Made by a program: the position numbers. 45,040 nucleotides of DNA from positions 1 through 45,040 of the forward strand of contig JAXHVD010000021.1 of NCBI GenBank assembly GCA_034189385.1, in the 5' to 3' direction. The DNA is from Thermodesulfobacteriota bacterium. Its GTDB lineage: Bacteria > Desulfobacterota > Desulfobacteria > Desulfobacterales > C00003060. Of the stretch, positions 39,001 through 45,000 are shown in pieces; position 1 is the first letter of the stretch; each line of letters begins with the position of its first letter.

Positions 39001-42000
39001 CATGCACCTGGCAATGGGTTTGTCATCCATGTTTAGACCTCAGATAAGAAGATATAGACCATGAGATTGGCAGTAAGGTAAGCCAACCAATAAAGGCTGA
39101 TGGGCAAAGGGAGGATATGTGGGAACTGGCCCTTGATTCGAAGTCCTTCGATATCAAGGACCAGATACCTGTTACCGGGATCACATTAGGTTTCTTCTAC
39201 AGTAATGGCTTCCTGCTCGCAGACCTCTACACAGCTTTCACATCCTAAGCACTCCTCTGCGTTGACAGGCTCGGATTTCTCGTCTTGAAGTTCAAAGACC
39301 TCAACGGGACAAACCTCGACACATTCGCCGCAGCCGGTGCACTTGTCCTTATCGACGCTCGGTGTGAACATAAAGCAATGCCTCCTTTCTTATCTTTTTT
39401 CAATAAGTTTTACATCCAAACCGATATTCTAGGATGAACTTGTCAGGTTTTGGAATGTGTCCTCATACACCAATAATCTTAAAACGTCAAGCATTCTGGC
39501 TGATCTTGCCTGATTTTTATGGCCTATCCCCTCCGCCTCTGGAGCCCCCCTTCGTTCTGGTACCGTTACAAAACAAGGCCTATGATGCTGTTCTTGGCAC
39601 AGTCTCCGTGTTCAGGACCAGTCTTGAGGCCACATCTTTTCTGTAGGAGAGTGCAAGGGGCAAGGCCGGGTACGACGGACCAACAGATACGTACTGTTCT
39701 ATTCCCAGGCTGGCTCACAGAGGCTTCCCAAGCCTTGATCATATCGTCGATCTCGCGCCCTGCCACTTCAACCCTTTGTCGCAGCTGATCACGCCACTCT
39801 GTTGTGAGGATCGCACCAAGAAGCTCTTGCAGAAAGGGGCTCCAAGGGGCCTTTTTGTGCGACTGTCCAGTGCAGGGGATGGCCCGTTTAAGCGGTTCAA
39901 GGCTTTCTTGTGCAGCTTCAAGAAGCCAGGTATAAGCCACCGGTGAGTCAGTCAAAAGGATGGCTGACGTATCATGGTCTTCCTGAAACAGGTGATTCCA
40001 AGCAGACATTCGATGCTCAATCATGAAGCCGCCAGGATCTCTGTCAGAATCCACAAGAGCGGCTCCGGGCATGGAGATCTCACTCTCTTCTGTCCTGTCA
40101 ATACGAAAGAAGTCCTGCAAGGCCTGTTCCTGCAACTTGAATTGCTCAAGGTGCTCTCGCAATTCCAGGGACCGCTCATCATAGTCTTGGGCCAGACGCA
40201 GGAAGAGCTGAGGGCCGAGATCGCCGTCCCAGAACGTTTTTGTTGTCTTGTCCACAGGTGCCTCTGATGCCTTGATTTCAGAAACGATCTTTGGGGTCAG
40301 GGGATCTACTGGAGCAATGTGACTCCCCACGGCCTTAAGATAGGCCATGTCGGCGTCCTGATTCATAAGACCCCATGTTTTCCATTGCTGTAATTCGCCC
40401 TCAAGGGTTTTCTTGTCAACGACATCTTCAAAGGGAACGCGGATTTCCAAAAACCGGTCGCTACCTGTCTGAGCGCCCGCGAAAGGAGGGGAACCGACAG
40501 GTCGATATAGGGCCACCCGGTCAAAGCAACGGGACAAGGCCTCAAGGAGTGAGGAGCCCATGACAGTAAAGGGGAAATAGACCGGAGACAGGATTGTGGA
40601 TTCAGGCTTCATATGGTTGTCTTCTCATCCCTCACTTCTACCCCTAAGGCCCAAAGCTGTTCCCTGATTTCATCGGCACGGCCCCAGTCTTTTCTGCCCC
40701 TGGCCTCTTCTCTTTGGGCCATCAGGCCTTGCACGTGGGCGTCCAGCGAGGACTCCTCGAACTGGAAGACACCCAGCACCTCATCAATGCGTTGAAGGGC
40801 CGCCTTGATCCGTCTTGCTCCCTGGAGATCTATCTCTTTGCTTGAAACCAAGGCGTTGAGTTTTCTAACCACTTGAAAAATAATGGCTATGGCAGGGGGG
40901 ATGTCCAGATCGTCGTCCAAGGCATCGGTAAACCCTGTCCTCATGTCGTATAGAAGCTGGTCCAGGTCACTGTAAGGACGCCCATCCTCCACACGGTTCA
41001 ACCGATATAGGCACTCGTCAAGCCTGCGAATGGCGCTCCTTGCTTGGTCAAGGGCTTCAAAGGAGAAATCTAAGGGTTTGCGATAATTGTGGGAAAGCAG
41101 CCAATATCGAATAGCTCGGCCACTGTATCCTCGGTTCAACAGGTCCCTCACATAGGGCATGTCAGGACCTGCCTGCGCTTTTTTCCCCCCAGACAGCACC
41201 AATTCGCTGTGTATCCAATAACGTGCCAAAGGTTTTCCTGTGAGGGCCGTGGTGACGGCTATCTCGTTTTCATTGTGGGGGAACGTGAGGTCCCGGCTGG
41301 TTGCATAGATGTCAAACGTTTCCCCCAGGTGTTTCATGGCCATTGCCGCCGACTCAATATGCCAGCTGGGTCGCACAGCCCCCCACGGTGTTTTTGTATA
41401 GATCCCGCGCTTCAGTTCTGAAAGCTTGGACCGTTTGAGGAGAGTGAAATCCCTTGGATTGGCCTTTTCATATTCATCCAGGTTCACCGTAGAGCCGAGC
41501 CTAATCTTATCAAGGTCAATCCCAGAGAGCTTACCGTATTGCGTGAATCTTGAAATATCAAAGTAAACGGACCGGAGCTTCTCATAGGCAAAACCCTTTT
41601 CCAGGAGTCGGGCCACCAGGGCAACCATATCTTCAACATGCTCGCTGGCTCTGGCGTACTTGGCTGCCGGGGTCATGCCGATGGCCCCGGCATCCTCTAG
41701 AAACGCCTCGAAATACTCGTCAGTAAAAGGGGTTAGCTCCATACCCGCCTTCTCAGACCCAAGGATCGTCTTGTCATCTAGGTCTGTGATATTGACCACA
41801 TGGGTTACCCCATATCCCTTATAGGTTAGATATCGGCAGAGGAGGTCGGCCACTACAAAACGACGACACTCTCCAACATGGATGCGATCGTGGAGTGTCG
41901 GGCCGCAGGAATAGATGGAAACCTTGCCAGGGCTAAGGGGCTCAAAGGGTTCCTTGGTGCGGGTCAGGGTGTTGAAAAACTTCATGCTGACTTGTTCTCG

Positions 42001-45000
42001 CATGGCAAAGAGGGGGGTGCTTAAATAGCGCTCTCCACCATCGGGCAAGATCACCACGACCACACCGTCAGACAGGGACTTGACCTCTTCACAGGCGATG
42101 GCCATGGCAGCTCCCGAACTCATACCCACAAACATGCCTTCCTGCTTCGCAAGCCGTCTGGTCATCTCAAAGGCCCTTTCATCGTCTATATTGACCTTTC
42201 TGTCCAGACGGCTATTTTCAAATATTCCAGGCCTATAGGACTCCTTCATGTTTTTTAGGCCTTGGATTTTGTGGCCAAGATAGGGTTCAACACCCACGAC
42301 CTGAACGTTGGGATTGTATTCCTTGAGGCGCCGTGAGGTTCCCATGAGGGTGCCCGTGGTCCCCATGGTGGCAACTAACATGGTAATGCGCCCTCCAGTC
42401 TGTTCCCAGATTTCCCGACCAGTGCCATCGTAGTGGGCTCGCCAGTTGGTATTATTGTTAAACTGGTCCGTCATGAAATAGGTGTCGGGATCTTCGCGGG
42501 CGAGGCGGTAGGCTTCCTCTATAGCACCATCTGTTCCCAGGTGCGGAGGGGTGAGTCTGATGTCAGCCCCCAGGGCTTGAAGGATCTTGCGGCGCTCCAC
42601 GCTGGCAGATTCTGACATGGTCAGCAGGAGGCGGTATCCCTTGACTGCGCACACCAGGGCCAGACCTATGCCAGTGTTGCCGCTAGTGGCTTCCAGCACG
42701 ATCTTCTCAGGAGTCAGGGCACCAGAGGCCTCTGCCTCCATAATCATGGTTTTGGCAATCCGATCTTTTACCGAGCCACCTGGATTGAAGTATTCAAGCT
42801 TGGCCAGCAGGGTCACCTTGGGGTTGGGGTTGAGCCGCTTGATTTCAAAGAGCGGCGTGTTCCCAATAGCGTCTAGAATCGAAGTCATTCCTGATGTCTC
42901 TTCACCCAAGGGCCTTTTGAATCTGTTCCCCCACAGACTTGATCTTTTGCATATCTCCTGGAACGATCTCCCAACGTGAGACGGTCACGCCGTCTCCTGA
43001 CCACCTGGGGACGATGTGTACGTGAAGATGGGGCACCACCTGATTTGCCGCCTTTCCGTTCAGCTGCATAAGATTGATTCCATCGGGATTGAGGGCCCCC
43101 TGGACAGCAACCGCCAGTTTTCTGGCGGCCGCCATGACGGCCAGGAAATCGGCTTCAGCGATTTCGTGAATCGTGCTAGCGTGGGCCTTGGGAATGATGA
43201 GAAGATGGCCGTCATTGATTGGGTTGATGTCCATGAAGGCGAGCACCCTGTCATCTTCATATACTTTGACCGATGGGATGTCTCCACTAACGATTTTGCA
43301 GAAGATGCAATCCATAGTGACCTCCTCTCAAGATAGCTCTGGGGCGCCGAAGCGTCCATACCTATTAGAAAAGCCGTGACGCCTCGTCAAGGAAAATCCC
43401 AGAGAAGAGCAAAGGGGCGCATCGGCCGGGGAAAAGAACAGGGAACTCACAGGGGGCGGCGCCTTGGTTTTGTCCCAAAAGACCCCCATGACACTGCGAC
43501 TACTTGATAAAGTGCAGAAATCCAGGTGATTCAAGGCGGCTCCTGCCCCCTGGGGCCTCTAACCAGATGCCACTGTCTTCAATGATCTTGCCGATCCGTG
43601 TGGCCCGCCGGTCTGACGCCTTGGCGTTGAGGGAGCGGATCCTTGGTTCTTCGACCGGTGAGGCCGTAAATAGGAGTTCATAGTCCTCACCACCCTGAAG
43701 GGCCCAACGAAGGGGACTTTGTGCTACTTGATCGGCAAGCCTCTTGAGCGGATCTGACATGGGGAGGGAAGCTCCTTGGAGGAGGGCACCTACACCGCTT
43801 TGCTCGCAGATATGGCCCAGATCCTTGGCCACGCCATCTGACACATCGATCATGGCGTGTGCCAGTCCACCCGCTCCCAAGGCCTTGCCCAGCTCAAATG
43901 GGGGCATCGGCTTCTGATGGGCCAGTATCAGGGATGCATATTCCACAGGCGTGGGTCTCGCCTTGTTGCTGAGGAGAAAGAGCCCCCCGGCTGCATCTCC
44001 CAGTCGGCCTGTCACCCATATATGATCCCCTACCTCAGCCCCGGAGCGGTATACGACGCATTCTCTTGGACAGTCCCCTAGAAGGGTGACCGTGACAACG
44101 GTACAGGACGGGCTTTCCACGGTGTCGCCGCCGGCTAAGACAACCCCTGTTTTTTCTGAAAAGGCCCTAAATCCTACTAGGAATGCGTCCAGAAATGCCG
44201 GTTTTGTTTCCGGCTTCAACCCCAGGGAGAGAAATGCGGTTCGGGGCGTACCGCCCATGGCGGCAATGTCGCTCACATTGACGGCAAGGGACTTCCAGCC
44301 GAGGGCCTCTGGGGAGAGGGTCTGATTAGTGAAATGAATGCCTTCAATCAGGGTGTCTGTGGTCACAAGAAGGGCTGACGCCCCGTCTGCTTCCAAGACT
44401 GCACAGTCATCGCCTATGCCTTTTGTGACGTGGGAAGCAGGTCCAGTGGTCCCTTGGCCCTGGATCTGTTGGATGATACCAGCTTCGCCCATGTCATTGA
44501 GTGTATGGTTGCCTTTATCGTGCCTCAAGATCGATTTCCTCCCCCGGCCAATCGTGTTGGAGCGATTGGCCAGCATTCAAGCAGTAACAATCATCGTGTG
44601 ATTTGTCCACAAATAAGGCAACCATGAAATGCGGTGTCACACAAGCATGAAGACCAGCCCCCAAAAAGGGGCCGTCAACGCAGGCAGAGGTATTCAAATG
44701 GGTCTAGGGCCCCGAAGGAGAGAAGGCTTCAGGTTGTATGTATGGCGGTGAAAGGCGGCCAGGTTAGCTGGCACTATGTTGTTGAGGCAAGGGGGAAGGT
44801 TCCAAGATCCGGATTGAAGTCCCAGAGGCGCTGCTAGCCTTCATCATCAGCCCCGTCGGGATCGTATTCCCGGAGGTAGAGGCCTCTATGGTCTTCCACT
44901 AGCCTATCTGCCCAGAGAAACAGCCACTGGGGATCTTCTTCGTTGAGCTGGGTCCAATCGGCGCCGTCAAAGTGCCAGAGGCCCAGGGTTCCAAAATCGA

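Follow-up and report, generated by a model that had tools for sequence, protein, structure and literature searches.

Histidine synthesis involves HisZ, a HisRS-like protein that is the regulatory subunit of ATP phosphoribosyltransferase, and GCN2 uses a HisRS-like domain to sense uncharged tRNA. Both are class II, derived from HisRS, and without charging activity. HisZ is a separate subunit; a review (PMC9437257) mentions it. Cyclodipeptide synthases are class-I-like proteins that lack the ATP site. Paralogs of CysRS itself have also been described. According to an excerpt of Mukai et al. 2017 (PMC5389517), a subgroup of the Desulfobacterales carries beside the canonical enzyme an extra CysRS, termed CysRS*, which has no anticodon-binding domain, follows selB* and selC* in the genome, and has been put forward as the charging enzyme of an opal-suppressor tRNA-Cys. 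A portion of another article (PMC2922099) describes class-I synthetase paralogs that act in nonribosomal ligation and the CysRS-like cysteine ligase MshC of mycothiol synthesis, which is ATP dependent and works without tRNA. A literature search for a fusion of CysK with CysRS found no description of one. Here we describe such a gene from a 45,040-nt stretch of DNA (the window) of a Thermodesulfobacteriota bacterium. Judging from its sequence, this gene probably encodes a tRNA-linked cysteine synthase rather than a second tRNA synthetase.

The fusion gene and its genomic setting

The fusion gene occupies positions 40609 to 42888 on the minus strand and encodes 759 aa plus a stop codon in a stop-free frame, with both halves scoring above NCBIfam cut-offs. 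An alternative TTG start would lengthen the frame to 42909; relatives begin at the ATG. Pfam places PALP at residues 4 to 283, tRNA-synt_1e at 315 to 617, DALR_2 at 653 to 709, and CysS_C at 714 to 757. Residues 1 to 295 (42004 to 42888, minus strand) form a CysM/CysK-type PLP-dependent sulfhydrylase module, and residues 301 to 759 (40609 to 41988, minus strand) form a full-length CysRS-like module with eroded ATP-site and zinc-site signatures. The AlphaFold2 model has a mean pLDDT of 87.9 and a pTM of 0.73, and linker residues 295 to 300 are of low confidence. Among 8,000 proteins scored, 7,683 match the fusion at an E value of ≤1e-50, and the best 120 of these are all 737 to 794 aa long and all carry both PF00291 and PF01406.

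The neighbors of the fusion are a HIT-family gene, ThiL, and a gene for a 348-aa protein. The HIT-family gene (42902 to 43315, minus strand; PF01230, E = 1.8e-28) ends 13 nt before the fusion ATG and is probably cotranscribed with the fusion in this genome; linkage of the two is restricted to close relatives and was seen in just 7 of 80 related loci. On the other side, the fusion stop and the start of the 348-aa open reading frame (39566 to 40612, minus strand) share an ATGA, which is a 4-nt overlap. Elsewhere in the genome are a canonical CysRS (C20:10467-11891; 577 bits to TIGR00435) and a stand-alone CysK (C5:131081-131971; 451 bits) whose gene is adjoined by a cysE-like gene, giving a complete free-cysteine route. 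The tRNAs of the assembly include only one ordinary tRNA-Cys, with a GCA anticodon and U73, and a real tRNA-Sec. On all of these points, namely the 759-aa frame and its fusion architecture, the size and shape of the family, the overlapping and HIT-family neighbors, and the separate CysRS and CysK, our results agree with the preliminary description of this DNA.

The 348-aa protein belongs to an unnamed family and has no match in Pfam, NCBIfam, or PDB sequences. Its structure model has a pLDDT of 82 and a pTM of 0.81, and a fold comparison of this model gave no clear match. In 66 of 91 loci, a member of the family lies next to the fusion and is encoded on the same strand, and the order of the two genes is swapped in 4 loci, all from one lineage. 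In each of 5 tested genomes in which the partner is not linked to the fusion, it is present elsewhere. Fifty of the 201 sampled genomes of the phylum have the partner gene, and 48 of these 50 are fusion carriers. This linkage and co-occurrence is a new observation, and the 348-aa protein, which has a dN/dS of 0.35, probably works with the fusion.

The fusion itself is found in 83 of the 201 genomes, and 82 of these 83 carriers also have a canonical CysRS (two or more TIGR00435 matches). It is distributed order-wide in a housekeeping-like manner and is not bound to a gene cluster. Its conserved neighborhood consists of housekeeping genes (surE, a gene for an OB+HD protein, and tmk), in which we saw no hint of function and found no acceptor, carrier, or tailoring genes.

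The cysteine synthase half

The N-terminal half matches TIGR01136 over profile positions 2 to 299 of 299 with 362 bits (cut-off, 344), which places it in this subfamily. Its best match is the cysM model TIGR01138, at 366 bits and below the equivalog cut-off of 394, and the cysK equivalog scores 311 bits, also below its cut-off (351). The closest solved structure is E. coli CysM (2bhs). Enzymes of the CysK/CysM type are marked by a PLP-binding lysine, a TSGNTG asparagine/substrate loop that binds the free carboxylate, a glycine-rich phosphate loop, and a serine beside the pyridine nitrogen. The fusion has SVKDR, TSGNTG, GTTGT, and MSSG, and all 199 readable relatives, like 17 of 17 more distant fusions, have both TSGNTG and xKDR, the motif of the PLP lysine. 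The N-terminal half thus looks like a working cysteine synthase of the CysM/CysK type. Because it scores below both the cysM and the cysK equivalog cut-offs, its candidate substrates include O-acetylserine or O-phosphoserine on one side and sulfide, thiosulfate, or thiocarboxylate on the other.

The CysRS-like half

The C-terminal half matches TIGR00435 over profile positions 1 to 458 of 466 with 359 bits (cut-off, 340), and its fold matches that of 8qhp, the best solved match, across 455 residues (E = 5.9e-92). In a tree, it branches outside the canonical CysRS clade (SH-aLRT of the clade, 99). Alignment to 8qhp, 3tqo, and the E. coli enzyme (1li5) shows that the class-I signatures are altered: HIGH is HVGE, KMSKS is lost and replaced by GKKAQAG, and HGGG is YATS. 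The preliminary description had called this half a complete CysRS into which fresh cysteine is channelled for tRNA charging. Neither part of that claim is supported, given these changes, the zinc-ligand substitution described below, and the canonical CysRS that accompanies nearly every fusion. The alternative named there, another Cys-ligation reaction, is a possibility for which we found no positive evidence.

These changes are not peculiar to one protein. Of 192 relatives, 178 have an acidic residue at the fourth HIGH position (E in 172, D in 6), in contrast to 77 canonical enzymes, which have N (53) or H (24). At the second KMSKS lysine, canonical enzymes have K in 77 of 77, whereas the five most common residues of the relatives (R in 69, E in 54, A in 29, P in 13, and G in 8, together 173 of 192) do not include lysine. 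The zinc ligands, which we take to be C28, C209, H234, and E238 in E. coli numbering as matched to the alignment, are present as C328, H538, and E542, with Ser513 at the position of Cys209. The Cys209 equivalent is kept in 67 and lost in 125 of the 192 relatives, the Cys28 equivalent is kept in 173 and lost in 19, and the equivalents of H234 and W205 are found in all 192. The second Rossmann half retains only 16 of the 33 columns conserved in canonical CysRS. Among the features still present are the TDxDDK and FPHxENE blocks and acceptor-side motifs, of which YGxLSG is an example.

The degree of decay of the catalytic motifs differs between lineages. In some, erosion is complete and yet the gene is kept, and the most eroded form goes by the plain name "cysteine synthase" at NCBI. 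The cysteine pocket also decays in several lineages. At the other extreme, relatives in another family of the phylum have near-canonical HLGN, WHIEC, and KMSRS motifs, so some members of the fusion family may still charge tRNA, and the CysRS motifs of a Nanoarchaeota fusion (P0125) are fully canonical. Variant KMSKS motifs occur in some class-I synthetases that are active, and we regard the loss of HIGH and KMSKS as a strong case for inactivity rather than proof of it.

In contrast to the ATP site, the anticodon-binding domain (CysS_C; residues 713 to 759, 40612 to 40752, minus strand) is well preserved. Part of the text of PMC13449415 gives the anticodon contacts of E. coli CysRS as R427, W432, D436, and R439. 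These align with R730, W735, D739, and R742 of the fusion, which are conserved in 192, 186, 192, and 192 of 192 relatives, respectively. The contact residues are more conserved in the fusions than in canonical CysRS; for example, the W735 column is W in only 34 of 77 canonical enzymes. Columns R726, D739, R742, and D754 are kept in 17 more distant fusions, and even in P0128, P0129, and P0131, where erosion has gone furthest, R726, D754, and the D436 and R439 equivalents survive. Across 175 pairs, dN/dS is 0.13 for the CysRS-like half and 0.09 for the CysK half. The CysRS-like half is therefore under purifying selection and does not look like a relic, and genomes across the phylum retain all 460 aa of it.

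Possible functions and comparison with known synthetase paralogs

The reading that we prefer, and hold tentatively at slightly less than an even chance, is that an active cysteine synthase is joined to a noncharging, tRNA-Cys-binding module with a sensor or scaffold role like that of HisZ or GCN2. The N-terminal half would supply CysM/CysK-type activity. The C-terminal two thirds would be a CysRS-derived pseudosynthetase that retains the CysRS fold, the residues that would read the GCA anticodon of tRNA-Cys, and most of the cysteine pocket, and that is missing the signatures of the class-I ATP site as well as, in this protein, one of the zinc ligands. The separately encoded canonical CysRS of the genome would do the charging. 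By binding tRNA-Cys, and perhaps cysteine, the module could couple cysteine synthesis to the state of tRNA-Cys or of the cysteine pool, and by analogy with HisZ and GCN2 its most likely role would be that of a sensor or scaffold. The losses at Cys209 and Cys28 weaken the cysteine-sensor version because the pocket is not uniformly kept. A more specific and rather unlikely form of this proposal is that uncharged tRNA-Cys, after recognition of its anticodon by the retired CysRS body, switches the fused cysteine synthase allosterically, with the 348-aa protein as a third, new component of the module. If true, bacteria would have in one polypeptide a counterpart of the logic of GCN2 and HisZ, in which synthesis of one amino acid is tied directly to the charging state of its own tRNA.

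A truly bifunctional enzyme, in which the CysRS half still performs both cysteine activation and tRNA-Cys charging and is fed newly made cysteine by way of the fusion, would account for the score above the TIGR00435 cut-off, the retained fold, acceptor-side motifs, and anticodon contacts, and the near-intact and canonical motifs of the HLGN/KMSRS relatives and P0125. We consider it improbable for this protein because the acidic HIGH residue, the missing KMSKS lysine, the serine at Cys209, and the loss of about half of the conserved Rossmann columns all speak against it, as do the canonical CysRS in 82 of 83 carriers and the lineages that keep a fully eroded gene. At the opposite extreme, the CysRS-like body might be a structural or oligomerization appendage without an RNA or ligand role, or a relic that is being lost. 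Uneven decay between lineages and the plain "cysteine synthase" name of the most eroded form fit such a history, but the low dN/dS, the strongly conserved anticodon contacts, and the phylum-wide retention of the entire body make this the least probable of the alternatives.

Two further possibilities give the module a tRNA-bound substrate. In one, it would hold tRNA-Cys while the PLP domain turns an esterified precursor (O-phosphoserine or serine) into cysteine, as a nonhomologous analogue of SepCysS. An intact beta-replacement PLP enzyme on a flexible linker to a domain with tRNA-Cys anticodon contacts is what this would call for, and RNA-dependent cysteine synthesis is reported for some bacteria in an excerpt of PMC5424206. 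However, we found no SepRS in the genome, which is 90% complete (best TIGR00470 match, 24 bits; cut-off, 381), and this speaks against a SepRS/SepCysS-type system; the invariant TSGNTG fits a free amino acid substrate; and the genome already has a complete free-cysteine route and a CysRS. We regard this conversion as quite improbable. In the other, which we find very improbable, the module would be a transferase. Its substrate would be the Cys-tRNA-Cys that the canonical enzyme produces, and it would hand cysteine to an acceptor that the PLP half might make or the 348-aa partner might carry. In keeping with this are the missing ATP site together with retained tRNA contacts and part of the amino acid pocket, a conserved partner of an uncharacterized family, and the nonribosomal ligases among class-I paralogs described in PMC2922099. 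Against it, acceptor, carrier, and tailoring genes are absent from the conserved neighborhood, several lineages show decay of the pocket itself, and the gene is order-wide and housekeeping-like rather than cluster bound.

The fusion can also be compared with the known families. From CysM and CysK (TIGR01136, TIGR01138; 2bhs), with which it shares a full-length match above the subfamily cut-off and every PLP and substrate-loop motif, the fusion differs in its scores below both equivalog cut-offs, and hence its range of candidate substrates, and in the added 460-aa CysRS-like body. With canonical class-I CysRS (TIGR00435; E. coli CysS 1li5/1u0b; 8qhp), that body shares the fold over 455 residues, the domain order (Rossmann, CP, stem-contact, helical bundle, and anticodon-binding), the anticodon contacts, W205, H234, TDxDDK, and FPHxENE. 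It differs in HVGE, the lost KMSKS, YATS for HGGG, and Ser for Cys209, and in sitting behind a PLP enzyme, outside the canonical clade and beside a separate canonical CysRS. CysRS*, as described in the excerpt of PMC5389517, likewise belongs to this bacterial order and is a CysRS paralog additional to a canonical enzyme, but the fusion retains the anticodon-binding domain and has no sel genes beside it. We reject identity with CysRS* based on that domain, the HIT, ThiL, and 348-aa neighbors, and the assembly, in which no selC*-type tRNA-Cys was found. MshC (TIGR03447) is also a CysRS paralog outside translation, but it is ATP dependent according to the same portion of PMC2922099, whereas the fusion lacks the ATP-site signatures, and at 172 bits against a cut-off of 485 the fusion is not MshC. 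HisZ and GCN2 offer a parallel: in each case a synthetase paralog without catalytic signatures exists beside the real synthetase and appears tied to the synthesis or control of its own amino acid, here through covalent fusion to cysteine synthase. The difference is that the present module, known from its sequence, is class I, CysRS derived, and covalently joined to the last enzyme of the pathway.

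Architecture of the fusion gene and its synthetase active site

The gene at 40609 to 42888 on the minus strand is an uninterrupted open reading frame of 759 residues, in which Pfam places a PALP domain at residues 4 to 283, a CysRS catalytic domain at residues 315 to 617, DALR_2 at residues 653 to 709 and CysS_C at residues 714 to 757. The N-terminal half exceeds the NCBIfam cut-off for the cysK/M subfamily (TIGR01136, 362 versus 344 bits); its best single model is cysteine synthase B (TIGR01138), but the score is below that model's cut-off. The C-terminal part exceeds the cysS cut-off (TIGR00435, 359 versus 340 bits) and covers profile positions 1 to 458 of 466. 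The two-part architecture given in the preliminary description is therefore borne out, as are the neighbors that it named: the stop codon of the fusion shares an ATGA with the start codon of a 348-aa open reading frame (39566 to 40612, minus strand), and a HIT-family gene (42902 to 43315, minus strand) ends 13 nt upstream. The fusion is real and widespread.

The CysRS had been described as complete, and this did not hold up when we aligned the half with three solved enzymes, one of them E. coli CysRS (1li5). Relative to 1li5, HIGH is HVGE, the KMSKS loop is GKK-AQAG, HGGG is YATS, and WHIEC is WHIES, in which the zinc ligand Cys209 is replaced by serine. We tabulated the motifs of 200 relatives with 60% identity or more (80 loci plus the 120 top-ranking database proteins). 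Of these, 199 cover the PLP-lysine motif and the TSGNTG loop, and all of them have both; none of the tabulated relatives has KMSKS, and the HIGH position is mostly HVGE, HIGE, HLGE or HPGE. We then compared, column by column, the full-length CysRS-like halves of 192 fusions with 77 motif-intact representatives of canonical CysRS. The fourth HIGH residue is glutamate in 172 of 192 fusions versus asparagine or histidine in 77 of 77 canonical enzymes. The second KMSKS lysine, present in all 77 canonical enzymes, is R in 69, E in 54, A in 29, P in 13 and G in 8 of the 192 fusions. Cys209 is found in 67 of 192 fusions versus 76 of 77 canonical enzymes, and Cys28 in 173 of 192 versus 77 of 77.

Retained features, selection and phylogenetic spread

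The canonical set has 70 columns with conservation of 90% or more, and the fusion family keeps 46 of them (by region, 13 of 18, 10 of 12, 16 of 33, 3 of 3 and 4 of 4). Retention is lowest in the second Rossmann half, the location of the zinc site and KMSKS, and is full in the helical and anticodon-binding domains. Arg427, Trp432, Asp436 and Arg439 are described as anticodon-contact residues of E. coli CysRS in structure 1U0B (PMC13449415). Their equivalents in the fusion, from the alignment to 1li5, are R730, W735, D739 and R742, which are conserved in 192, 186, 192 and 192 of the 192 family members, respectively (the remaining six have phenylalanine at W735). These four positions are more strictly conserved in the fusion family than in the 77 canonical enzymes. 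The equivalents of W205, H234 and G29 are also invariant among the 192, and that of E238 is kept in 167. By the Nei-Gojobori method, applied to 175 pairs with unsaturated dS, the CysK half has a dN/dS of 0.09 and the CysRS-like half one of 0.13; the body of the latter gives 0.10 and its helical and anticodon-binding part 0.19. The value of 0.13 indicates that selection maintains the CysRS-like half, which as a whole is not in decay.

We also compared 17 more distant fusions, of which 11 are loci in other families of the phylum and 6 are representatives with 43 to 59% identity from an exhaustive search. All 17 have the PLP motifs, and all keep R726, D739, R742 and D754, save for one Arg-to-Lys change. 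Their synthetase active sites range from near-canonical (HLGN, WHIEC and KMSRS) to fully eroded; P0128, P0129 and P0131 have neither HIGH, nor the cysteine ligands, nor KMSKS, and P0128 is a Desulfovibrio ferrophilus protein that NCBI names "cysteine synthase." A series that runs from near-intact to eroded while the anticodon contacts stay invariant shows which parts of the synthetase its new role would need.

A tree of 88 rows was made by a quick IQ-TREE search from one fusion half in nine and one canonical row in two, with the others omitted. The canonical CysRS clade has an SH-aLRT of 99, and the Desulfobacterota fusion halves branch outside it together with a few stand-alone relatives. In P0125, a CysK-CysRS fusion from a Nanoarchaeota metagenome-assembled genome, HIGN and KMSKS are both fully canonical and the CysRS half branches within the canonical clade; this fusion probably arose independently and may be truly bifunctional. 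The P0137 cluster (58 members, 468 aa) comprises CysRS-like proteins that stand alone, carry HIGL and KMSRS, and fall with the fusion halves rather than with canonical CysRS.

As the preliminary description stated, the genome has a stand-alone canonical CysRS and a stand-alone CysK. The CysRS scores 577 bits and the CysK 451 bits, and the CysK directly adjoins a cysE-like gene. There is one ordinary tRNA-Cys(GCA), with G1:C72 and U73. Outside the window, at G000 C31:4024-4121, lies a bona fide tRNA-Sec(UCA) with G73 and a long variable arm, which makes it probable that selenocysteine is encoded in this organism. The assembly shows no tRNA-Cys of the selC* type, and SepRS was not found in this 90%-complete genome (best match, 24 bits). 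Of 101 genomes sampled from the same order, TIGR00435 has two or more matches in 91, a single match in 9 and none in 1; among the matches listed, the second lies within a fusion-size frame in at least 54 genomes. Across the phylum, the fusion is present in 83 of 201 sampled genomes (E ≤ 1e-120). Comparison of the two tables shows that TIGR00435 matches at least twice in 82 of these 83 carriers, and that in nearly all of the 82 one match has a canonical-level score. It follows that the fusion is an old and broadly retained additional gene and not a synthetase replacement. Cultured carriers among the relatives are Desulfosudis oleivorans, Desulfonema limicola, Desulfatirhabdium butyrativorans and D. 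ferrophilus.

The 348-aa partner gene and the neighborhood

In 66 of 91 loci, a profile of 48 homologs places the 348-aa partner next to the fusion and on its strand, and 11 of the 25 loci without a match have less than 600 nt of flank. The partner is downstream of the fusion in 62 loci and, in another family of the phylum, upstream in 4 (L101, L104, L105 and L106), where the gap is 29 nt. The fusions at these 4 loci have near-canonical HLGN, WHIEC and KMSRS; since the partner also stands beside near-intact fusions, it does not look like a late stand-in for the lost ATP site. Where the two genes are unlinked, the partner is present as a single copy elsewhere in all five genomes tested. The partner is found in 50 of the 201 genomes of the phylum sample, and 48 of these 50 also carry the fusion; because related genomes are nonindependent, this is a count of co-occurrence and not a statistical test. 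One of the two exceptions, genome G153, has a CysK-like gene (53% identity) apart from a CysRS-like one (38% identity), along with the partner, and so may represent a split form. With a dN/dS of 0.35 (65 pairs), the partner is a real gene, and this newly noted partner turns the fusion into a two-gene module.

No match to the partner came from Pfam, NCBIfam or PDB sequences, its profile finds nothing among PDB sequences at E ≤ 10, and no Pfam family recurs over 48 members; its relatives are all "hypothetical protein" where the source gives a name. Its confident AlphaFold2 model (pLDDT 82, pTM 0.81) is alpha/beta with a long helical insert. Foldseek of this model against PDB gave no match at E ≤ 0.001, the ESM Atlas gave none of 0.9 or more, and the best VIA-align Z over 48,161 chains was 4.3 (3.8 on a second look). 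Weak echoes at Z 3 to 4.3 recur among HUP-type nucleotidyltransferases (PPAT, NaMNAT, PanC, NadR and one cyclodipeptide synthase), and GT-B enzymes give weak echoes as well; these likenesses are too weak to mean anything. The HUP-type fold class includes class-I synthetase cores. The partner family has no HIGH-like motif, and hhalign of partner against fusion gave a probability of 0.1. A complex prediction of fusion residues 1 to 650 with the partner scored 0.00 against a mark of 0.32 in a run without controls and gives no verdict.

At 14 fusion loci and at five unlinked partner genes, the surroundings consist of housekeeping or unrelated genes, and the HIT neighbor is not conserved (7 of 80 loci). 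No Rfam match at E ≤ 0.1 lies in 36000 to 45040, and so no leader RNA was seen there. A look through the listed sequencing runs turned up no RNA data set. The window's LarA-like gene ("nickel pincer cofactor-dependent isomerase, group 22"; 36573 to 37856, minus strand; 483 bits, cut-off 400) has counterparts downstream of the partner in 19 of 80 related loci, and after it comes an Ogt methyltransferase gene (36058 to 36573); this synteny survives where the fusion has moved away. Between the partner and a 3-hydroxybutyryl-CoA dehydrogenase gene (37910 to 38776) is a 92-aa open reading frame (38752 to 39030, minus strand) with no family match, conserved at 63 to 73% identity in four related loci. 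In most other Desulfobacterales, the fusion follows lptD (opposite strand), surE, a gene for an OB-fold and HD-domain protein, and tmk, a run seen at L034, L038, L047, L055, L056, L057, L059, L072, L077 and L082; upstream of the fusion in the window, ThiL and HIT genes take its place.

Proposed role and comparison with known proteins

The invariant PLP enzyme and anticodon contacts, the progressively eroding ATP and zinc site, the purifying selection and the canonical CysRS alongside together fit a cysteine synthase whose retired CysRS body would bind tRNA-Cys and perhaps, in most members, cysteine as well. This pattern does not fit a second charging enzyme, the role that the preliminary description had proposed. 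Residual charging by the CysRS-like half, the conversion of a tRNA-bound precursor and the use of Cys-tRNA as a donor are less probable rivals, each of them weakened by a specific result. CARS-type cysteine persulfide synthesis depends on the lysines of KMSKS, and we dropped that reading because these lysines are lost in the fusion.

Another CysRS paralog of the Desulfobacterales, CysRS*, is described as lacking the anticodon-binding domain and following selB* (Mukai et al. 2017, PMC5389517); on that description, it is a different protein from the fusion. Table 1 of a 2022 review on synthetase duplications has only CysRS* and MshC as CysRS paralogs, and the accessible text of surveys of cysteine-encoding systems and of class-I synthetase-like proteins does not mention the fusion. 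Nor did a full-text literature search, with subscription journals outside its scope, find a description.

We conclude that the fusion is a probable synthetase-derived pseudoenzyme attached to amino acid synthesis, of which we found no description in the searchable literature. The label "cysteine--tRNA ligase," which it carries in hundreds of sulfate-reducer genomes, is probably the wrong name. If the retired body binds tRNA-Cys, a class-I synthetase paralog would have been recruited to control or organize the synthesis of its own amino acid, and there would be a direct protein-level link in bacteria from a tRNA to a biosynthetic enzyme. With carriers in culture, the two-gene module is ready for bench tests. 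The role that we favor, by analogy with HisZ and GCN2, would be that of a sensor or scaffold.
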